DNA of 64,000 bases from Chthonomonadaceae bacterium. Lineage in GTDB: Bacteria; Armatimonadota; Chthonomonadetes; Chthonomonadales; Chthonomonadaceae. Below the pieces are notes generated by a model. That model did not search any database, was not told the origin of the DNA, and was given only the letters and a program-made list of their open reading frames with translations. This document shows, piece by piece, positions 39,500 through 52,101 of this stretch. The stretch spans positions 87,526-151,525 of the forward strand of contig DASRGZ010000096.1 in assembly GCA_035650735.1 (NCBI GenBank). The letters are read 5' to 3'. A program made the translations under genes and the position numbers. Numbering within the stretch: the stretch's first letter is position 1; each line of letters starts with the position of its first letter.

Positions 39500-41496
39500 G
39501 TCCGACAGCCATATCATTGAGATTCCACGCCATAACTCCACCGATTTCAATCCGATGTGGATCGGCTCTACAATCTACTTCCTTTCCGACCGGAACGGGC
39601 CGACGACGCTTTTCGCTTACGACGTGACGACGCGGCGTGTGCGGCAGGTCCTCACCAATCACGGACTGGACGTCGCTTCCGCTTCGGCTGGCCCCGGCGC
39701 AACCGCCTATGAGCAGTGCGGTTCACTTCATCTTTATGACCTGGCTTTCGGCAAAACGCGCGAGGTGAAGGTACAGATTCATGCGGATTTTCCGGCCATA
39801 CTACGCGCCTCTCGCCCTCCGGGGAGTGCGCCGCCTTTGAAGCGCACGGCGAAATACTGACGCTGGACGCCGCATCGGGAAAGGCGCGCAACATAACCGA
39901 ATCTCCGGGCGTGATGGAACGCTCCCCGGCGTGGTCGCCGGACGGGAAGACCCTCGCCTACTTTTCGGATGAGTCCGGAGAGTATGGGCTTCATTTGCGC
40001 TCAGCAGAGGGGAGAGGCACTGTAGAGAAGATCGATTTCGGAACGCCGCCTTCTTTCTACTACTCGCCCCGCTGGTCGCCCGATGGAACCAAGATCGCCT
40101 ACGCCGACAAGCGGCGGAACGTCTGGTACGTGGATCTCAGGACAAAAACGCCGGTGAAAGTGGATACGAACGTTCCTCTCTCCGACCTCTCGCCGGCCTG
40201 GTCGCCCGATAGTCAGTGGCTGGCTTATGCGAAGCGCCTGAAAAACGGCTTCGGGGTCATCTTTCTCTACTCACTCCCCACCAGGCAGCGTGTGCAGATC
40301 ACGGATGGATTGCACGACGCGGCGTGCCCTGCGTTCGCCCCGGATGGCAAACGCCTCTACTTTACTGCCAGCACAGACACGACCAGGCCGGGAACGCGCA
40401 ACGTCTATGTCATTGCCCTTCAAAAAGACGCGCCTGCGCTCCTTCCCGCCGCCAAAGGAGACGAGGACGCGCGGCCTCAGAACGACGCACAAAATCCAAT
40501 CCGCCCGGAGGTGAGCAGCATTCAAATAGACCTAGAAGACATTGGGCATCGGATGCAGGCAGTGCCTACGCCCGCGGATAATTACGTGGGATTGATCGCA
40601 GCCGATGACGAGGCTCTGTTCCTGCTTGAGTCAAAGAGCGCCCTACGTCGAGGGATTGGCCACGCGCGCCGACCTGAACGCTCTGTTTATGGAGATGTTA
40701 GGAAACCTCACGGTCTCGCATGTCGCCATCCACGGCGGCGATATACCGAGTACTCCGACGATCCCGGTCGGATTGCTCGGCGCGGACTATGTTCTCGAAA
40801 AACGGGCGCTACCGTTTCGCGCGAATCTACGCCGCCGATCCCTGGAACCCCGGCATGAAAGCCCCGCTCACCGAACCGAGCGCTCAGGTAAAAGTCGGCG
40901 AATATCTCCTGGCGGTCAACGGGAAGAGCTTGAGCGGAAGCGATAACATCTATCGTCTGTTTGAGGGGACGACCGGCAAGCCGACGGTCCTTCGCGTCGG
41001 CCCAGACCCGAACGGAAGCAGAGCCAGAGATATTACGGTTACGCCTATCGCGAATGAGCTCAGCCTGCGGCATTGGGCCTGGATCGCGGAAGCGACTCAG
41101 GAAAGCCTGCTGATCAACGAGTACGCCGGTTCTGGCGGGGATGCGCTGGCGCTGTTTTTTCGCAAATTGGGCGTCGGGCCGATTCTCGGCAAGCGCACCT
41201 GGGGCGGACTGACGGGAGCATTCGACACACCGGAACTGATGGACGGTGGGGTCGTCGAGATACCCGACGTCGCCTTTTGGGATCCAGACGGAGTATGGGC
41301 GGCGGAAAATCGAGGCATTGCTCCAGATCTGGAGGTAGAGTTCGACCCGGAGCAAGGGCGTAAAGGCCATGATCCCCAGTTGGAAAAGGCCATTGCTACA
41401 GTCTTGCACCTGCTGCACAAGAAACCTTTGCTACTACCGAAACGACCTCCCTATCCAAATTATTCCAGTCAGCGGTTGATGAGGTGGGCCAGGTAG
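39500..41496 (+). pseudogene. Tricorn protease (S41) remnant with frameshifts and internal deletions
   Basis: PMWIGSTIYFLSDR, WSPDG repeats, PDZ (GEYLLAVNG), INEYAGSGGD, GKRTWGG, ENRGIAPD spread over several frames. Confidence 0.85.
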
Positions 41497-42227
41497 CCCG
41501 CGCCGAAGCCATTGTCAATGTTGACCACGCCGACGCCAGTGGCGCAGGAGTTGAGCATAGTCAGCAGGGCGGAAAGCCCCTGGAAACTGGCCCCGTAGCC
41601 CACGCTTGTCGGCACGGCGATGACCGGGCGCGCGACCAATCCGCCGACGACCGAGGCCAGCGCGCCTTCCATGCCCGCCACGACGATCAGGACATTGGCG
41701 GAGAAAAGCTGCTCCTGGTGGCCCAGCAGGCGGTGAATGCCGGCCACGCCCACATCGTAGAGGCGTTCGACCGGGCTGCCCATCTCCGAGGCCGTGACCG
41801 CCGCCTCTTCGGCGACGGGCAGATCCGCCGTTCCGGCAGAGACGACCAGCACGGTTCCGGTGGGCGAGGGCGGAGGCTCCGGCCCGGACTCGCTGCCCGG
41901 CACAACCAGCATACGCGGCAGTTCGTGGTAGACGGCATGGGGAAAGACACACTGTACGGTGGCGGCCACTTCCGGCGCAGCGCGCGAGGCCAGCACCTTG
42001 CGCGAACGGGCCGTCAGCCGCTCCAGAATGGCAACAATGTGTTCAGTCGTCTTTCCGGGGCAGTAAACGACTTCAGGAAAGCCGTTGCGCAGGGCGCGGT
42101 GGTGATCCAGCTTGGCAAAGCCCAGGTCTTCAAAAGGCAGGGAGCGCAAGGAGGCTAGCGCCTCCGCTACCGACGTCTCTCCCGACTGTACGCGCTCCAG
42201 CAAATTCCGCAAACGTTCCACATCCAT
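41469..42227 (-). CDS. larB: Nickel-pincer cofactor biosynthesis protein LarB
   Basis: LDHHRALRNGFPEVV, AGTADLPVAEEA, DVGVAGIHR, AGMEGAL, PTSVGYG, NIDNGFGA. Confidence 0.93.
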   Translation of the reverse strand: MDVERLRNLLERVQSGETSVAEALASLRSLPFEDLGFAKLDHHRALRNGFPEVVYCPGKTTEHIVAILERLTARSRKVLASRAAPEVAATVQCVFPHAVYHELPRMLVVPGSESGPEPPPSPTGTVLVVSAGTADLPVAEEAAVTASEMGSPVERLYDVGVAGIHRLLGHQEQLFSANVLIVVAGMEGALASVVGGLVARPVIAVPTSVGYGASFQGLSALLTMLNSCATGVGVVNIDNGFGAGYLAHLINR

Positions 42228-42246
42228 ACCGCAACTTACTCCCAAT

Positions 42247-42978
42247 TCATTCTGTATTCTGCCGCCGCAGCCGCTCGATCTCGGCGCGCAATCGCGCAAC
42301 CTCCGCTTCGGCCTCTGCCGCCCTCCGCGCCTCCTGTTTGGCCCGCTGTCCCTCTGCTGCCGCCCGTTGCGCCAGTTCCAGGGATGTCAGCAACGGTTTC
42401 TGGCGCTGCGGGTCATACAGTCTTAAGGTCTCGCCTTCCTGCTCTAGATCCAGCCCTAGCTGCTGGCTGTGCAGCCTGCCTTCCGCCGGAAGCAGCGGTT
42501 GATACCTGCCTCCCACCAACCGATAGCCCTGCAACAAGTTGGGCTTGAGATAATCCCCCGTCGGGTCGAATAAGAAATATTCCGGCACTTCCAGTACCTG
42601 CTCGTAGACCCGGTGCTTCTTCTCGGTATCTTCCTTGCGCATCTTTTCGGACGTGATCTCAAAGACGACATCGGAAACTTACCGCCTTCCTTCCAGGCCA
42701 TATACGAGTCACGCAGGCGCATCCCTACTCCAAAGACGACATAGCAATCCGGGGAAACGACGGCTTTGGGATTGCCCTCCTCGTAGTATAAGGAAGTTAT
42801 CGCCGGCCACATAGACCTCCGGGCGGTCCGCAAAGTAAGCCCGAAGCGCGCTGATGCAGTACATAGTCACGGTGACATGTTTGTCGGTTGCGCCCATCGG
42901 CTTTCCATCGGAGGTTGGGTAGTAGATGCGCCGGGGGTGAGGCGGCGGTGATGGATGGCGCTGTGGTGCGGTTGCCAT
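42247..42978 (-). pseudogene. Uma2 (DUF820) family endonuclease with two frameshifts
   Basis: YPTSDGKPM; YYEEGNPK..VSPD; FEITS...EYFLFDP in different frames; shifts near 42790 and 42675. Confidence 0.85.
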
Positions 42979-42989
42979 AATAGTTGCCC

Positions 42990-43904
42990 TTACTTGCTGC
43001 GGACCTCGATCTGGCCGATGGGAATCAGATCAGGTTTGCGGGAGAGCGTATCGTTCATCTTGCCGGAGCGATATCCTTCCAGGTCGAGCGTGACGTAGGT
43101 ATAGCCTAAATCTTTAAAGCGGGCGTTGATCTGCTCGCGTAGCTCTACGACTCGCGGGATGTCCTGCGGCTCGACCTCGATACGCGCCACCGTGTCATGA
43201 TGGCGCACGCGAAACTGCCGGAAGCCGAGTTCCCGCAGATATTTCTCGCAGGCGTCCAGCTGCGCCAGCAGTTCGGCGGTGATGTGCGTGCCGTAGGGGA
43301 AGCGGGAGGACAGGCAGGCGAACGAGGGCTTGTCCCAGTTGGGAACGCCCAGATGGAGCGCCAGCGCACGCACGTCCGCTTTCGTCATGCCCGCCTCGCG
43401 CAGAGGGCTGCGGACGTCGCGCTCGGCGGCAGCTTTGAGGCCGGGACGGTGATCGCCGGGCCGACCGTCCTCGGCGTGGGAGCCGTCGGCGATCCAGCGG
43501 ATGTGGCGCTCTGCGGCGACTTTCTGCAATTCCGTGAATAGCTCCGTCTTGCAGTGATAGCAGCGGTTGGGATTGTTGACGGCGAAGTGCGGATTGGCAA
43601 GCTCATGCGTGCGGATGCGCGTGACCTGCACGCCCATGGCGGCAGCCACTTCCAGCGCCGCCTCGACCTCACCCTGCGGGAACGCCTCCGAGTCGCCGGT
43701 GACGGCCATCGCGTTCTCGCCCAGGACATCATGGGCCACCTTCAGGACCAGCGTGCTGTCCACGCCGCCCGAATAGCCGATGACCACCTGGCCCATCTCC
43801 CGCAAAATCTGCCTCAACTTCTCGTACTTGGCGGCCAACTCCGGGGAAAGCGTCCTCTCCTCTGTCGTCTCCATCGGACCGGCGCCCTGTGTTGCCTTGA
43901 TCAT
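42990..43904 (-). CDS. larE: ATP-dependent sulfur transferase LarE
   Basis: SGGVDS PP-loop, RCYHCK, RPGLKA, ACLSSRFPYG, RVRHH, GYRSG. Confidence 0.93.
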   Translation of the reverse strand: MIKATQGAGPMETTEERTLSPELAAKYEKLRQILREMGQVVIGYSGGVDSTLVLKVAHDVLGENAMAVTGDSEAFPQGEVEAALEVAAAMGVQVTRIRTHELANPHFAVNNPNRCYHCKTELFTELQKVAAERHIRWIADGSHAEDGRPGDHRPGLKAAAERDVRSPLREAGMTKADVRALALHLGVPNWDKPSFACLSSRFPYGTHITAELLAQLDACEKYLRELGFRQFRVRHHDTVARIEVEPQDIPRVVELREQINARFKDLGYTYVTLDLEGYRSGKMNDTLSRKPDLIPIGQIEVRSK

Positions 43905-43970
43905 AAGTTCTGCGTCCTCCTGCACAGGTGAGCGTGTTTGGATTATAGCACGATTCGGCTCCCGCGCCAA

Positions 43971-45959: not shown

Positions 45960-46316
45960 TCAGCGCGCTTTTCCTTGCCTCTTCTCCGGCCACTCTACCA
46001 GCCGATCAATCAGATAATTGGCACCATAGATCGCCATGAGTACCTCGGCAATAGTCCTCTCAGGTACCCGCCGTGTCGCATAGGTGACGCCCACGAGCAG
46101 CGCAAAGGCAGCCACGAAGCCGTACCGGGCGGGACAGTCCTTGCAAGCGAGAGTCAGGAAGAGGAACGCCACGGAGACGCTCATGACAAAGCGCAGGCCC
46201 AGAGGATAGCCGGCGAACGCCGCCCAGGCCGCGACGGCCCCAACCGCAACGAGCGCAGGGATGCGTAGCCTTGCCAACCAGTCTCGGAGCTTCGCATTCA
46301 CTTCTACGATCTCCAT
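45960..46316 (-). CDS. Small multi-TM membrane protein; possible second immunity/accessory gene of the RHS locus
   Basis: 118 aa, about four hydrophobic segments; directly follows the duplicated module. Confidence 0.6.
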   Translation of the reverse strand: MEIVEVNAKLRDWLARLRIPALVAVGAVAAWAAFAGYPLGLRFVMSVSVAFLFLTLACKDCPARYGFVAAFALLVGVTYATRRVPERTIAEVLMAIYGANYLIDRLVEWPEKRQGKAR

Positions 46317-46421
46317 ACTTCTGCAATCTCCATATCGGTAGCGTTTTGTACCGGCTCAGTGCTGTGTGAAATCGATTCTCCTCCTTTCCGTTCGGCTGGC
46401 GTTGGTGACCGTTGGCAGCTA

Positions 46422-46715
46422 CTACTGCTTATTATGTCCAGACGACGATGCGCGGAAAAAGGCGTAGGCTAAACTAAACCAAGCAAGCGCCACAAGCAGG
46501 CTAAAGAACTTCTGCCATCCTCTGGTCGAGGGCAGCAGATAACCGCTCTCCTGAAGCTTCTCCAAGCCCCAGGCAACCATCAGGAAAGGCACGGACGACT
46601 CGGCAATCAGGAGCGAGAGTGTAAGCGGCTTCTTGCGACGCAACAACCTAAGAAGAGACCATATCCAGATTGTTAAGCCAACGAGTATAAGGCTGAGCGC
46701 AGCAAATACCTGCAT
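46422..46715 (-). CDS. Putative immunity protein, copy 2 (3 TM)
   Basis: MQVFAAL...LLRRKKPLTLS..IAESS.PFL...ESGYLLPSTRGW; AGGAGG RBS; paralog of 47615-47914. Confidence 0.75.
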   Translation of the reverse strand: MQVFAALSLILVGLTIWIWSLLRLLRRKKPLTLSLLIAESSVPFLMVAWGLEKLQESGYLLPSTRGWQKFFSLLVALAWFSLAYAFFRASSSGHNKQ

Positions 46716-46844
46716 TTCTGCTCCCCTCCTATCCGGCAACAAGACAAACGAGCGCAATGCCGGCTGTACTCATATCTGCCTCCGCGTAATCGAGACGCTG
46801 CCGGCCCTCCATCGAGGAACGACCGATGGAGGGCCGGCATCACC

Positions 46845-47525
46845 TTACTGGCCTTTTATCCAGATGGCTATGTGTTTGGCGATGGCAACCCCGCCAACGG
46901 TCACAAACACAACGCTAACGATCACCGGGGCAAGCGTGGTCGCTCCTGCGCCAGCCGCGAAAGCCCCTCCAATCATGGCTATGTCGCCAAGCACCTGCCC
47001 GGCATGGCTGAGTGCAGGCCAGCCGAAGACGTCGCCCATACTTCCAATCCCGTAGCCAATGGCGCTGAGGCCTCCGAGCCGGACAGGCGTCCTGCCAAAG
47101 ATTCTACCCAGCTCGTCTATCATATCGGCCATGTGTCCGGTCGGATCCAGGCAATTGACGGGATCGTGATGGCAGTACAGATACGGAGGCTCACTCAGCA
47201 CGGTATCCCTGGTGAGGAACCGGCCAACCTGCGGGTCGTAGTAGCGCGCTCCCACCAGCAGCAGGCCCGCATCCCCGTCGGTCCGGTAGCCTGAGGTGGC
47301 GGCGAACATATAGGGGTTGGTGGACGAGCCGGTGGTTGCCACCGTCTGGCCGAAGGCATCGTAGGTGAGGGTGCCGGTCACGCTCTGGCTGGCGTTGGTG
47401 ACGGTGCGCTCGGAACCCAGCCCATCGAAGAGCGGGTACTCGCCATCCTTTCGCACCAGGGCGTTGCCGTAGGTGTAGGTGGCCGTCGTGGTCGAACCCT
47501 GCGCCTCCAGCCACACATGCCCCAA
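46845..47525 (-). CDS. Orphan RHS core plus variant C-terminal tip (no convincing start of its own)
   Basis: Near-identical to the last ~226 aa of 48024-51185; GARYYDPQVGRF, DPVNCLDPTG. Confidence 0.85.
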   Translation of the reverse strand: MGHVWLEAQGSTTTATYTYGNALVRKDGEYPLFDGLGSERTVTNASQSVTGTLTYDAFGQTVATTGSSTNPYMFAATSGYRTDGDAGLLLVGARYYDPQVGRFLTRDTVLSEPPYLYCHHDPVNCLDPTGHMADMIDELGRIFGRTPVRLGGLSAIGYGIGSMGDVFGWPALSHAGQVLGDIAMIGGAFAAGAGATTLAPVIVSVVFVTVGGVAIAKHIAIWIKGQ

Positions 47526-47614
47526 GAGCGGTAGCGTTTTGTACCGACTCGGTGCTTTGTGAATTTGATTCTCCTCCTTTCCGCTCAGCTGGCCGTAGTG
47601 ACTGTTGGCAGCGA

Positions 47615-47914
47615 CTACTGCTTATTGTGTCCAGACCACGAGGAGCGAGAATAGCCATAGGCGAAAATGAGAAAAGCAAGCGCCATAAGCAGGCCAACGA
47701 ACTCCCGCCATCCTCTGGTCGAGGGCAGCAGATAACCGCTCTCCTCAAGCCCCTTCAAGCCGACCGCAACAGCCAGGAAAGGCAAGGATGACTCGGCAAT
47801 CAGGCGCGAGAGCGTAAGCGGCTTCTTACGACGCAACAGCGTAAGGAAGGACGATATCCACATTGTTAAGCCAACGCCAATAAGCACAAGGCCGAGCGCA
47901 GCCATTACCTGCAT
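47615..47914 (-). CDS. Putative immunity protein, copy 1 (3 TM)
   Basis: MQVMAALGLV...; AGGAG RBS; immediately downstream of the RHS gene. Confidence 0.75.
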   Translation of the reverse strand: MQVMAALGLVLIGVGLTMWISSFLTLLRRKKPLTLSRLIAESSLPFLAVAVGLKGLEESGYLLPSTRGWREFVGLLMALAFLIFAYGYSRSSWSGHNKQ

Positions 47915-48023
47915 TTCTGCTCTCCTCCTATCCGGCAACAAGATAATAGTCCCGACGCCTCCGTGAAATCGAGACACTGCCGGCCCTCCATCGAGGAACG
48001 ACCGATGGAGGGCCGGCATCACC

Positions 48024-51000
48024 TTATTGGCCTTTTATCCAGATGGATATTTCTCTGGCGATGGCAACCCCGCCAACGGTCACAACCACAACGCTAACTA
48101 TCACCGGGGCAACCGTAGTCGCTCCTGCGCCAACTGCGAAAGCCCCTCCAATCATGCCAATATCGCCAAGCACATTTCCGGCATGGCTGAGGGCAGGCCA
48201 GCCGAAGATATCGCTCATTTTCCCGATTACGTAGCCAATGCCACCGAGTCCTCCAAACCGGGCAGGCGCTCTGTTAAGGATTTTACCCAGATCATCTATC
48301 ACATCGGCCATGTGCCCGCTCGGATCGAGGCAATTGACGGGATCGTGATGGCAGTACAGATACGGAGGCTCACTCAGCACGGTATCCCTGGTGAGGAACC
48401 GGCCAACCTGCGGGTCGTAGTAGCGCGCTCCCACCAGCAGCAGGCCCCCATCCCCGTCGGTCCGGTAGCCTGAGGTGGCGGCGAACATATAGGGGTTGGC
48501 GCTGCTGCCCGTAGTGCCCACTGTCTGGCCGAAGGCATCATAGTTGATCGTGGCGGTTACGCTCTGGCTGGCGTTGGTGACGGTGCGCTCGGACCCTAAG
48601 CCATCGAAGAGCGGATACTCGCCATCCTTTCGCACCAGGGCGTTGCCGTAGGTGTAGGTGGCCGTTGTGGTCGAACCCTGGGCCTCCAGCCAGACATGCC
48701 CCAAGAGCGGGTCGGTCAGGAACTGGGTGGTCACCCCGCCCGCCGTCCGGCTGATGCGCCGACCGAGCGCGTCATAGGCGAAGCTCTTGGTCACGCCCCC
48801 GCCCGTGAGGCTGGTCAACTGGCCGTCGAAGTCATAGCTGAGCGTGTAGGCCGTGCCGGAGAGCGTGCGGCTGGTCTGCTCGCCGTTGGCATTGTAGCCA
48901 TAGCTGTTGACGATGCCGCCGCTGGTGCTGGTCAACTCATCGTCCGCATCGTAGGTGAAGCTGGTCGTTACCCCGCCTACCGTCTGGCTGGTGCGGTTTC
49001 CTACTCCGTCCACGACGTAGCTTTTGGTGTAGGGGTTGGTCCCCGTCCGGCTTTCCGAAGTGAGCCGGTGCGCCCCATCGTAGCCATAGCTGACGACGGA
49101 GCCGTCCGCCTCGGTCACGCTCGTCCGCAGGTCGTCGGCATTATAGCCATAGCTGAACGAGGAGAGGGTCGCGCCGCCGCCGGTCTTGTTGGTGACGCTG
49201 GTGAGGCGGTTGGCCGCATCATAGGCTTTGGTGACGCTGGTTCCGTTGGGGTTGGTGATGCTGGTCTCGTTGCCGTTGGCATCGTAACCGTAGGAGGTCG
49301 TGCCGCCGGTCTCCGAGACGGAGGCAAGCTCGTTACGGGCGGTATACGAATAAGTAATCACGCGCCCGTTGGTGTCGGTGAGCGTGGAGAGCAGCCCCTT
49401 CTGGCCTACCGCATCGTAGCTGTAGGTGAAGCGGGCCACATTGTTGAGCTTCTCACTCGTGATGCGGTTGGCCGCGTCGTAGGTGCGGCTCCAGGTTCCG
49501 TTCGAATCCGTCCAGCCGGTCAGGTTGCCCTCCGGATCGTAGCTGAACGTCTTCGTGCTCGAATCGGGATAGGTAATGGTGGTTACCCGCTCCCAATTGT
49601 CCAGCGTGTAGTTGGTCGTCCGGTTCAGCGCATCCGTCCGGCTGGTCTTGACGCCCAGGGCGTTGTAGCCGAACGAGGTGACGTGGCCCAGAGGCGTTGT
49701 CACGCTCGTCAGGTCGCCGTTGGCGTTGTAGCCATAGGTGGTCGTGTGATTGTTGCTGTCAGTCTTAGAATGAACGGTCCCATCCGCGTTATAGGTGTAG
49801 GAGGTAGTACTGAGAACCGTCCCGTTCGAATCCTTCTGCTGGGTCTGGATCAGGTTCCAGTTCAGGGTGGCATCGTAGGTGTTGACCGTCTGGTGACCGA
49901 GGGGGTCGGTGGCGGTCAGCACGCGGTTCCGGCTGTTGTAGGTCCAGGTCCACTGATGCGTTAATGGGTCCGTTCGGCTGGTGACGTTGCCGTTAGAATC
50001 GTAGCCGAACTGCCACAGATGCCCGTTGCGATCCGTCACGGAGGTCCGGTTGTTGTTGCTGTCGTAGCCGTAACTCTCTGTGTTATTCAGGGCGTCCACC
50101 ACCGAGGAGAGCCGCCCTGACGCATCGTAATTGTGCTTGATCACATGACCGTTCGGGTCTGTAATGACGGTCTGGCTCGTGTTGTAGGTAAAGCCTGTCT
50201 GGTTGAGCAAAGGGTCCTTCTGCCAGGCGAGGCTGTTGTCGGCGTTGTAGCCGAACGTCCAGTTGCTCCCGCGCCGGTCGGTGTAGGTGGTAATGTCGTG
50301 ATTGGCGTTATAGACGAACTGCTGCGTGTAGGTGAAGCCGCCCACCGCCGGCCAGGTGATGGTTACCAGGTCGTTGCTGGCGTTGTAACTGAGGGTCCAC
50401 TGCCGGTTGAGCGGGTCCGTGATCGTGCTGATTCGATTGCTTCCATCGTAGCCCAGAGTGATTGTCCGGTTCGTCGGGTCTACGATGCTGGTGAGGTAGT
50501 TGCTCGCGTTGTAGTTAAGCGTGATCGTATTGCCGTTCGGGTCGGAGATGGACGTGCAGTACCAGGTGCTGCCGCTCTGCCGCCCGAAGTGGTACTTGAT
50601 CTGCCCTTTCGTGATGACATCGTAGCTGGTGGCCGGGTTGCCGTTGGCGATCAACTGGTCGTGGACGCCGGGCGGAGGCGAGAAGCTGCCGTTGATGTTC
50701 TGCGTATACGGGACGTTTAGATCGTCGCCCCAGCGCATGGTCATAATGCCATTGTCAACGTCCCAGGTCAGTGTCAGCAGGAAGCTGTGCGTCCACTTCT
50801 GGCCGAGTTCCCGGTTGTAGCTGCCCTTGCTGTTGTGGTAAAGCGTGAACTGAACGGGCAAGCCGCCCCGCGCCGTCCAGCCGACCAGCGGGAAGCTGCT
50901 GAGCTTATTGCCGTTCACCGTGTTGGTGTTGTTGATATTGCCTTCCCACGGATAGGGCGTGCCGGCATCGGGATCAGTTCCGGTGGTGAAACCGTTCGGC

Positions 51001-51185
51001 ACAATCTGCGCGCCTACGATGGCCCGCATCTCGTCGGGCGTGAGCGTGCGGATATGGCCTACCGACGGCGACGGCTGCGCTAAAGCCAGCGCGCCCGGCG
51101 CTAACACGAATGACCAGACAAAGCAGATCACAGTCAAAAAAGCCAGGGGCCGCCAGACGCGGCGAAAGGTTCTTCGCTTATACAT
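48024..51185 (-). CDS. RHS/YD-repeat protein with signal peptide, double-glycine-type leader and hydrophobic C-terminal tip
   Basis: Many YD repeats, RHS core, PVNCLDPSG autocleavage motif, ~95-aa Gly/Ala/Val-rich tip. Confidence 0.92.
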   Translation of the reverse strand: MYKRRTFRRVWRPLAFLTVICFVWSFVLAPGALALAQPSPSVGHIRTLTPDEMRAIVGAQIVPNGFTTGTDPDAGTPYPWEGNINNTNTVNGNKLSSFPLVGWTARGGLPVQFTLYHNSKGSYNRELGQKWTHSFLLTLTWDVDNGIMTMRWGDDLNVPYTQNINGSFSPPPGVHDQLIANGNPATSYDVITKGQIKYHFGRQSGSTWYCTSISDPNGNTITLNYNASNYLTSIVDPTNRTITLGYDGSNRISTITDPLNRQWTLSYNASNDLVTITWPAVGGFTYTQQFVYNANHDITTYTDRRGSNWTFGYNADNSLAWQKDPLLNQTGFTYNTSQTVITDPNGHVIKHNYDASGRLSSVVDALNNTESYGYDSNNNRTSVTDRNGHLWQFGYDSNGNVTSRTDPLTHQWTWTYNSRNRVLTATDPLGHQTVNTYDATLNWNLIQTQQKDSNGTVLSTTSYTYNADGTVHSKTDSNNHTTTYGYNANGDLTSVTTPLGHVTSFGYNALGVKTSRTDALNRTTNYTLDNWERVTTITYPDSSTKTFSYDPEGNLTGWTDSNGTWSRTYDAANRITSEKLNNVARFTYSYDAVGQKGLLSTLTDTNGRVITYSYTARNELASVSETGGTTSYGYDANGNETSITNPNGTSVTKAYDAANRLTSVTNKTGGGATLSSFSYGYNADDLRTSVTEADGSVVSYGYDGAHRLTSESRTGTNPYTKSYVVDGVGNRTSQTVGGVTTSFTYDADDELTSTSGGIVNSYGYNANGEQTSRTLSGTAYTLSYDFDGQLTSLTGGGVTKSFAYDALGRRISRTAGGVTTQFLTDPLLGHVWLEAQGSTTTATYTYGNALVRKDGEYPLFDGLGSERTVTNASQSVTATINYDAFGQTVGTTGSSANPYMFAATSGYRTDGDGGLLLVGARYYDPQVGRFLTRDTVLSEPPYLYCHHDPVNCLDPSGHMADVIDDLGKILNRAPARFGGLGGIGYVIGKMSDIFGWPALSHAGNVLGDIGMIGGAFAVGAGATTVAPVIVSVVVVTVGGVAIAREISIWIKGQ

Positions 51186-51345: not shown

Positions 51346-52101
51346 CTAACGCGATAGCCTCAGCAGAATGCCCCCTGTGCGTCTGAGCAGTTCGTCAGTG
51401 GTTATCACCTCCTCGTTTATCTTATTCGGGTCATGGATGGTCGCCCTATCTCCATCCACCGAGAGGATCGCCACGTAGTGATCGCCGTCCACCCAGGCGA
51501 TAGCTATGCGATCCAGATGGGCGAGGGCTTCACGGTCCATCTGTACGCCATCCGCTTGCAGCCCTTTGGCCTGGGCCGCGTGCGCCAATCCATCCAGGGT
51601 CGTGCCGCGAGAATTAGTGCCTGCGTGCTGGCGCAACTCGTCCAGGGTGGCCGGTATGCCGAGCTTACGGCAGGCGAGCAGGAGAGCGCGCGGCCCACAA
51701 TCGGTTGGCGCAGACGCGGACAAGGGGAGGTTCGGACTGGTTAGTGATGGATGGATCGCCCGGGAGGACGGGCCGGTCAGGGCGCGTTCGCAGAGGACGC
51801 GCTGGCGGACCAGGAAAGCGCGTTCGGCGTCCGTCCGGTGGGGAGAAGAGAGCAGAGTATCCAGCAGAGCGAGCGCGCAGTGATAGTCCTTGCGAGCGTA
51901 GCGGCGCACCGCTTCCTGGTACTCAGCGGAACTTCGAACAGAAAGGCGCTGGCTCTGGCGCAGGGGAACAGAGGTCGTGCTGCCAGCAGAGACGAGAATA
52001 GCAGTTGTATGCGGCTCCTTCCGCTGACATCCGGAACAACTTGCAAACAACCCTATTGTCGCCACAAAGACAAATCCGGCGAGAAAAGGTTGACGATGCA
52101 T
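51346..52101 (-). CDS. Stand-alone C39-family cysteine peptidase, probable lipoprotein
   Basis: Hydrophobic leader ending FASCSGC; DCGPRAL, GTTLDGL..AA..KGL, AWVDGDHYV, IHDP; no ABC domain. Confidence 0.85.
   Translation of the reverse strand: MHRQPFLAGFVFVATIGLFASCSGCQRKEPHTTAILVSAGSTTSVPLRQSQRLSVRSSAEYQEAVRRYARKDYHCALALLDTLLSSPHRTDAERAFLVRQRVLCERALTGPSSRAIHPSLTSPNLPLSASAPTDCGPRALLLACRKLGIPATLDELRQHAGTNSRGTTLDGLAHAAQAKGLQADGVQMDREALAHLDRIAIAWVDGDHYVAILSVDGDRATIHDPNKINEEVITTDELLRRTGGILLRLSR

Follow-up and report, generated by a model that had tools for sequence, protein, structure and literature searches.

A double-glycine-type C39 recognition motif behind the signal peptide of an Armatimonadota Rhs toxin precursor and its pairing with a C39 peptidase lipoprotein

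The genome of a Chthonomonadaceae bacterium (Armatimonadota) encodes an Rhs protein in which a double-glycine-type motif follows a separate signal peptide, and sequence comparison supports the view that this motif is a genuine recognition sequence for C39 peptidases. The locus lies in a stretch of 64,000 nucleotides (contig DASRGZ010000096.1, positions 87,526 to 151,525), referred to below as the window. Named homologs, too, point to Armatimonadota, in the vicinity of Chthonomonadales. A gene for a stand-alone C39 peptidase lipoprotein with an intact catalytic triad is located 160 bp upstream of the Rhs gene on the same strand; motif and peptidase gene are linked among related loci, and in other proteins the two are fused in a single chain. 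Judging from the sequences and from a model of the complex, we consider it likely that the signal peptide takes the Rhs precursor across the inner membrane, more probably by Sec than by Tat, and that the C39 lipoprotein then cuts the pro-leader after G58-A59. The features on which this reading is built are the following.

48024..51185, minus strand: Rhs/YD-repeat polymorphic toxin precursor of 1053 aa (Pfam RHS_repeat, E 2.2e-81; TIGR01643, TIGR03696)
51078..51185, minus strand: putative signal peptide, residues 1-34/36, with a basic n-region, a hydrophobic stretch from residue 14 and an AxA end (from sequence)
51009..51053, minus strand: double-glycine-type C39 recognition motif, Rhs residues 45-59 (sequence, rarity, conservation, predicted contacts)
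51346..52101, minus strand: stand-alone C39 peptidase lipoprotein of 251 aa (Pfam PF03412, E 3.7e-20; conservation; model), with lipobox C25, a three-helix TPR-like hairpin domain (59-109) and a C39 domain (132-250) containing C135, H208 and D224

The motif in the Rhs precursor

The sequence IRTLTPDEMRAIVGA is the translation of positions 51009-51053 on the minus strand and corresponds to residues 45-59 of the 1053-aa Rhs ORF (48024-51185). With A59 counted as -1, G occupies position -2, I -4, M -7, E -8, T -11, L -12 and I -15. The leader consensus given in the available parts of PMC6959990 and PMC6363468 is L(-12)xxxE(-8)L(-7)xxxxG(-2)G(-1), with a GG, GA or GS ending; residues L48, E52, M53, I56, G58 and A59 agree with it, Met replacing Leu at -7. 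A sequence-only reading of this DNA had claimed such a fit, as well as the stacking of a double-glycine motif behind an N-terminal signal; every position that it named was verified, and the stacking is supported by the sequence and by the N-termini of homologs. Its designation of the motif as a bacteriocin leader stands as far as the consensus is concerned, but not as to a role in export, given the lack of both a C39-bearing ABC transporter and an HMM match. The motif does not lie at the precursor N-terminus, where a separate signal peptide precedes it, which sets the Rhs protein apart from the substrates of peptidase-containing ABC transporters (PCATs).

Scoring against double-glycine and bacteriocin leader HMMs, proposed in the same reading, gave no match to any Pfam or NCBIfam leader model. 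NCBIfam was searched with Rhs residues 1-80, Pfam with two pieces of 28-29 aa, and the whole genome with TIGR01847; none of these gave a match at E up to 10, with a sensitivity limited by short models and filters. The rarity of the motif could be assessed with simple patterns. The strict form, L[ST]xxE[LM]xx[IV]xG[GA], occurs once in the 5491 genome ORFs of at least 250 aa, and this single match is the Rhs site itself. The relaxed form, LxxxE/QL/MxxI/V/L/MxG, was found within residues 26-100 in 7 of these 5491 ORFs; the relaxed patterns were drawn up after the homologs had been seen.

Signal peptide and conservation of the leader

The N-terminal signal is more likely to belong to the Sec than to the Tat type. 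A TatFind-like pattern was matched by only one of 26 full-length leaders and not by the present one, and an RR pair near the hydrophobic stretch occurs in 19 of the 26. The earlier proposal of a Tat-like or Sec signal cleaved near ALALA-Q is retained for the signal peptide and for its AxA end, while Tat appears doubtful and, as read from homolog N-termini, signal peptidase may cut after A34 instead of A36. Five motif-less Armatimonadota relatives (L092, L098, L102, L108, L113) have clear twin-arginine-type signals (RRxFL, RRELL), suggesting that some Rhs shells are exported by Tat.

Alignment of homologous Rhs N-termini, another check put forward in the sequence-only reading, spoke for the motif: upstream of DUF6531, the relaxed form is present in 28 of the 46 closest homologs and the strict form in 12. 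Among the 68 more distant homologs that could be anchored, only three have the relaxed motif, and two of these three are fused to C39. Thirty leaders of split systems were selected by the relaxed pattern, so that only columns outside this selection are informative. In these columns, Arg was found at -14 in 29/30, Thr or Ser at -11 in 27/30 and Gln at +1 in 19/30. The -1 residue is Ala in 13 leaders, Arg in four, Gly, Ser and Gln in three each, Thr in two, and another residue in the remaining two; G, A or S thus accounts for 19 of the 30 and a different residue for 11. The Gly at -2 is retained even in variants that fail the motif pattern.

The C39 peptidase lipoprotein

The sequence-only reading was silent on the adjacent stand-alone C39 lipoprotein, which we regard as the likely cutter. 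The protein scores 72.6 bits against PF03412, for which the cut-off is 22, and its triad of C135, H208 and D224 is invariant in 62/62 homologs. When the peptidase homologs are aligned at the lipobox end (G24/C25), Gly is present in 55/62 and Cys in 50/62. In the structure model, three helices (59-109) are followed by a C39 fold, and the nearest solved folds are the peptidase domains of PCAT1, ComA and LahT (for PCAT1, a region of 33% identity and a Foldseek E of 6e-9). The C39 lipoprotein lacks the Gln located six residues before the catalytic Cys; this Gln occurs in just 1 of the 60 split peptidases and in 3 of the 20 fused ones. According to the available parts of PMC6959990 and PMC6363468, this Gln lies 4.3 A from the oxyanion in LahT, His may serve in its place, and the PCAT1 cleft is reported to be too narrow for side chains.

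A profile search with the peptidase gave 128 clusters with E values of 1e-30 or lower, and none of the 150 best matches listed exceeds 433 aa. Within the genome itself, PF03412 matches three frames, which are all short (256, 176 and 205 aa) and none of which is a C39-bearing ABC transporter; the assembly is 97.6% complete. Besides the gene of the C39 lipoprotein, two C39-like genes were noted in it: a 162-aa stand-alone protein which keeps the Gln before the catalytic Cys and in which no signal peptide was seen (G000:C48:10215-10703, minus strand), and a split helical-plus-C39 gene, which lies at the end of a contig (G000:C141:2474-3456, plus strand). Database calls of the peptidase gene at 51346-52101 often begin later and give 187 aa (3 of 6 cluster members), in which case the lipoprotein signal is lost. 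The best ribosome-binding-like AGGAG lies more than 20 bases before the ATG of the long form, and a scan for promoters and terminators gave no excess over shuffles.

Linkage of the motif to the peptidase gene

The association was approached from both genes. The Rhs N-terminal region matched 80 of the 301 genomes of the phylum, and 80 of the 106 places listed were taken. Seven loci that offered less than 2 kb of upstream sequence and showed no peptidase there were left out, one of which (L109) has a loose motif. This left 73 loci. Of the 12 with a C39 gene upstream, 11 carry the relaxed motif, as against 1 of the 61 that lack such a gene; for the strict motif the corresponding figures are 5/12 and 1/61. 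Starting from the peptidase gave 29 loci, 9 of which repeat loci of the Rhs-first set. Seven end within 200 bases, and in all the other 22 the peptidase gene runs into an Rhs/DUF6531 gene, which carries the relaxed motif in 19 cases, a looser one in one case and a motif with a single substitution in two. These counts are inflated because the loci are kin. In a quick tree of 70 rows, from which four short rows (L104 among them) were left out, 9 changes in the presence of the peptidase and 8 in that of the motif were counted, and only two independent pairs lie on well-supported branches, so that the test of co-evolution was not significant (sign test, median p 0.5). One supported sister pair within a single genus consists of a locus with both traits (L040) and a locus with neither (L046); two genomes of that genus with a motif-less Rhs (G296 and G103, 92% and 97% complete) have no PF03412 match.

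The pairing has exceptions on both sides. Locus L104 has the motif and no adjacent peptidase, and its genome contains five other C39 matches. Related peptidase genes at L147, L150, L166, L181 and L186 are not followed by a leader-bearing Rhs; the one at L150 encodes a protein without the catalytic Cys, and only an Rhs C-terminal fragment comes after it. Most Armatimonadota Rhs proteins with the present type of plug have neither motif nor peptidase, and the C39 step is therefore dispensable for the wider family. Among 24 loci no linked transporter or pore gene was common upstream, and one unrelated frame pair matched. A metagenome scan with a single protein yielded six loci, all of them motif-less relatives.

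Fused forms and a second split type

Twenty proteins combine, in this order, a signal peptide, TPR, C39, the motif, DUF6531 and Rhs. In every one of the 20, the C39 domain is immediately followed by the motif, whose ending is Gly-Gly in 19 cases (e.g., LLTRSQMEMIRGG-HH); two of the 20 are named from Acidobacteriota (Pyrinomonadaceae, Blastocatellia). In other Armatimonadota, GG-CC was found behind C39 in 8 of 9 long fused frames. An Atlas search with the fused region gave no usable match. In a second split type (L137, L146, L167, L173, L174), a C39 gene of 337-344 aa overlaps a DUF6531 gene of 1370-1485 aa, and a related leader, LTAKEMKAMRG or LTSKESKSLQG (L137, L146, L174), lies behind the signal peptide. 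Since both fused and split forms carry the pairing, the motif is tied to the peptidase, whether in one chain or in two.

Some of the fused proteins have unusual residues after the motif. In the C39-Rhs-like frames L155-L162, Gly-Gly is followed by Cys-Cys and further cysteines, and other fused forms have GG-HHLHG; the N-termini that a cut after Gly-Gly would leave might engage in metal binding or in disulfides. Another family of C39 proteins, about 260-630 aa long, has signal peptides and beta-rich extensions at the C-terminus and shows no link to Rhs (L134, L135, L138, L142, L144, L145).

Predicted docking of the leader

The C39 domain (residues 128-251, with alignment) was modelled together with Rhs residues 38-72. 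The complex scored 0.79, while the best of three controls reached 0.02; the docking mark is reached by 116 of 157 solved complexes and by 2 of 215 mismatched pairs. The runs agree in at least 89% of contacts, with a partner pLDDT of at least 68. The predicted interface includes leader residues 41-61 and the catalytic stretches 133-136 and 206-209 of the peptidase; L48 rests on residues 185-187, and M53 and I56 rest on 168-171. This arrangement agrees with LahT, which binds leader positions -12, -7 and -4 (available parts of PMC6959990 and PMC6363468). Placement of the motif in the C39 active site is a prediction only. Complexes of this kind have been solved (6MPZ, 6V9Z), so the result is a likeness and no proof of binding or cleavage, and it may stem from the predictor's memory of those structures.

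The Rhs toxin, its cargo and its surroundings

The Rhs gene and the genes downstream of it include the following elements.

50724..50924, minus strand: DUF6531, the N-terminal plug of the Rhs shell, residues 88-154 (E 2.2e-7)
48312..48542, minus strand: Rhs-associated core with D934 and D954 (DPSG) of the C-terminal self-cleavage motif (NCBIfam, sequence)
48027..48314, minus strand: C-terminal cargo CT1, 96 aa, glycine-rich and hydrophobic, with one strongly hydrophobic segment
47615..47914, minus strand: small membrane protein, putative immunity protein 1 (position after the toxin gene, hydrophobic segments; function assigned by inference)
46845..47525, minus strand: orphan Rhs core with a CT2 cassette (TIGR03696, E 2.2e-16)
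46422..46715, minus strand: putative immunity protein 2, a paralog of immunity protein 1 (sequence comparison, gene order)

The locus shows the hallmarks of an Rhs polymorphic toxin: a DUF6531 plug, whose role is described in the available part of PMC10684867, YD repeats, a core ending in DPxG (here DPSG), a C-terminal cargo that varies among homologs, a putative immunity gene downstream and an orphan cassette. The DUF6531 region lacks the Pro of the x-P-V/I-N self-cleavage site. CT1 is a putative membrane-acting antibacterial toxin; from the order of the genes, the downstream membrane protein would neutralise it. The cargo has no Pfam match, and an Atlas search with it gave a best score of 0.85 and a colicin-like row at 0.83, scores below 0.9 serving as leads only. 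CT2 differs from CT1 in 22 of 96 residues. A direct repeat at 46368-48710 (86% identity over 1170 columns) duplicates the Rhs core, the cargo and the immunity gene, and a natural variant (P0001) carries the cargo of the orphan cassette on a full-length Rhs gene, the switch lying between residues 912 and 956. An exchange of cargo would account for this variant, as would a chimeric assembly.

The second immunity gene is followed, past an exact repeat of 60 bases, by a gene for a third small membrane protein of 118 aa without a Pfam match (45960-46316, minus strand). The genes flanking the Rhs/C39 locus encode a beta-lactamase-family hydrolase and a glycosyl hydrolase. At 41469-43970 (minus strand), LarE sulfur transferase and LarB-like AIR-carboxylase-domain genes enclose a frameshifted, restriction-endonuclease-like gene, which we take to be of Uma2 type. 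Elsewhere in the genome there is a second Rhs in two frames, the start of which lies beyond the contig (G000:C122:13816-16503, minus strand), as well as an Rhs frame of 1767 aa located at the end of a contig (G000:C66:25424-30727, minus strand).

Proposed mechanism and alternative explanations

The presence of Omp85 and six secretins in the genome indicates that the cell has an outer membrane. We infer the export route, the cleavage, the toxicity and the purpose of the cut as follows. The Rhs precursor would cross the inner membrane by its signal peptide, more probably through Sec, and signal peptidase would remove residues 1-34/36. The lipid-anchored TPR-C39 enzyme would then grip the remaining pro-leader through L48, M53 and I56 and cut after G58-A59, leaving a mature shell that starts at Q60 with QIVPNGF and holds the hydrophobic C-terminal toxin; the Rhs core would later free the 96-aa hydrophobic cargo. 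The cut may serve to release the shell from the membrane-bound enzyme or to unmask the plug. Bulky -1 residues in about one third of the leaders and the missing oxyanion Gln bear against clean cleavage. Secretins are candidates for the outer-membrane route. Delivery by a T6SS was considered and rejected, as the genome gave no match to the sheath protein VipB and neither PAAR nor any other T6SS link was found.

The same two points that bear against clean cleavage would suit a motif that works as a docking tag, to which the lipoprotein binds as a chaperone or tether without cutting, in the manner of the inactive C39-like domains of type I systems. The -1 residue is other than G, A or S in 11/30 leaders, the complex prediction addresses binding and not catalysis, and L150 even lacks the catalytic Cys. 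However, the latter gene has only an Rhs C-terminal fragment after it, whereas the triad is kept in 62/62 homologs, G(-2) persists in pattern-failing variants, and Gly-Gly is present in 19/20 fused forms, where a tether would be redundant; we find this role unlikely. It is quite improbable, too, that the N-terminal hydrophobic segment remains as an uncleaved membrane anchor, so that a sole N-terminal cut by C39 would shed the shell from the inner membrane. Conserved Trp and Pro residues in the hydrophobic stretch would fit an anchor, and the distance from the stretch to L(-12) is nearly fixed (mostly 16-23 residues), which would hold the leader at the height of the lipid-anchored enzyme; on the other side, the AxA signal-peptidase site recurs among homologs, and a long distance separates signal peptide and motif in the fused proteins.

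Two further explanations have very little probability. A true bacteriocin-type leader would route Rhs through a PCAT, in line with the consensus fit and with the closest solved folds of the peptidase, which are PCAT domains. This export route was rejected because no C39-ABC fusion was found in the 97.6% complete genome; the internal position of the motif behind a signal peptide and the lack of a common upstream transporter gene among the 24 loci also argue against it. Chance resemblance, or an amphipathic spacer helix unlinked to the peptidase, could be read from the failure of every curated leader HMM, from the motif of L104 without an adjacent peptidase and from the non-significant tree test. 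It is, nevertheless, largely refuted by the sequence data: the site is the sole strict match in the genome, it is conserved at a fixed register, and its linkage to the peptidase is seen from both search directions as well as in the fused forms. Cleavage of the pro-leader by the C39 lipoprotein remains the reading that we prefer.

Relation to known systems

The pair resembles PCAT1-CtA, LahT and ComA in the spacing of L-12, E-8, L/M-7, a hydrophobic residue at -4 and G-2, in the Cys-His-Asp triad and in the fold. In contrast to PCAT/AMS proteins, the present peptidase stands alone as a lipoprotein whose N-domain is helical, has no ABC transporter fused to it and is predicted to be extracytoplasmic, while the available part of PMC10318531 describes PF03412 as ABC-fused. 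The leader is internal, behind a signal peptide, and its substrate is a 1000-aa Rhs shell; the -1 position is relaxed, the oxyanion Gln is absent and there is an extra conserved Arg at -14 (29/30). The Rhs motif would work like a PCAT leader and is outside that class, not being N-terminal and having neither a transporter nor a model match.

By description, a close parallel is FapD of the Pseudomonas Fap amyloid system, a periplasmic C39 peptidase with an export signal, encoded beside a Sec-exported cargo, whose catalytic Cys is needed for secretion; the available text of PMC5557850 identifies no target for it. FapD thus provides a precedent for a periplasmic, catalytically required C39 peptidase. 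As far as that text goes, Fap has the FapF pore and an amyloid cargo, whereas here the cargo is an Rhs toxin; moreover, the present enzyme has a lipid anchor and a TPR-like domain, and enzyme and substrate also occur as fusions. The flanking genes include no linked pore or amyloid subunits, nor did the 24 loci have any upstream gene in common.

With Rhs and WapA proteins, as covered in the available parts of PMC10684867 and PMC12704120, the locus has in common a YD shell with a DUF6531 plug and a DPxG core, a cargo that varies, an immunity gene downstream and an orphan cassette; N-terminal processing just ahead of the plug and, as in WapA, Sec export would be further common points. Tse5, RhsA, Rhs1, TseI and S. 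suis WapA-CT1 cut themselves at an x-Pro at the start of DUF6531 (same sources), whereas that Pro is found here in 0/30 split and 0/20 fused proteins; the pattern used located no site in 5/30 split and 25/61 distant proteins. Loss of the Pro was rejected as a marker of C39 use, since none of 18 close motif-less relatives has it either and the loss is not diagnostic. C39-like domains (Tox-PL-C39) were also placed among toxin peptidase domains by Zhang et al. 2012 (available part of PMC3482391), which is a likeness in that a C39-like peptidase occurs within polymorphic toxin systems; in contrast to these, the C39 domain of the present systems stands at the N-terminus or in a protein of its own and appears to serve maturation. 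In the literature available we came across no account of a leader-bearing Rhs that has its own C39, and the architecture tables of PMC3482391 could list C39-Rhs fusions. What seems new is the combination of known parts (leader, C39 peptidase, Rhs) into one enzyme-substrate pair.

Significance

N-terminal cleavage of Rhs proteins is described as poorly understood in the available part of PMC10684867. Their N-terminal processing and delivery without a type VI link are poorly understood as well, and the present locus points to a particular enzyme, substrate and bond; it suggests an undescribed maturation route for Rhs toxins after they leave the cytoplasm. The pair is small, a 124-residue domain and a short peptide, and would give the extracytoplasmic C39 peptidases, of which FapD is the model member, an enzyme with its natural substrate. 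A transporter-free C39 peptidase tolerating varied -1 residues could also become a tool for removing leaders.

A broader view, which we put forward tentatively and think possible though rather doubtful, is that leader/C39 chemistry outside ABC transporters is a general maturation step beyond the inner membrane, and that in Rhs it replaces N-terminal self-cleavage. The TPR-C39 enzyme would hold on to the pro-leader of the Sec-exported shell while the shell folds and is loaded, and would then pass the shell on to a channel in the outer membrane, for example a secretin, while the fused forms of Acidobacteriota and other Armatimonadota would free themselves in cis. If true, this would constitute a route of Rhs delivery apart from T6SS and WapA, and Rhs-linked and FapD-class peptidases would have a recognition code in common.
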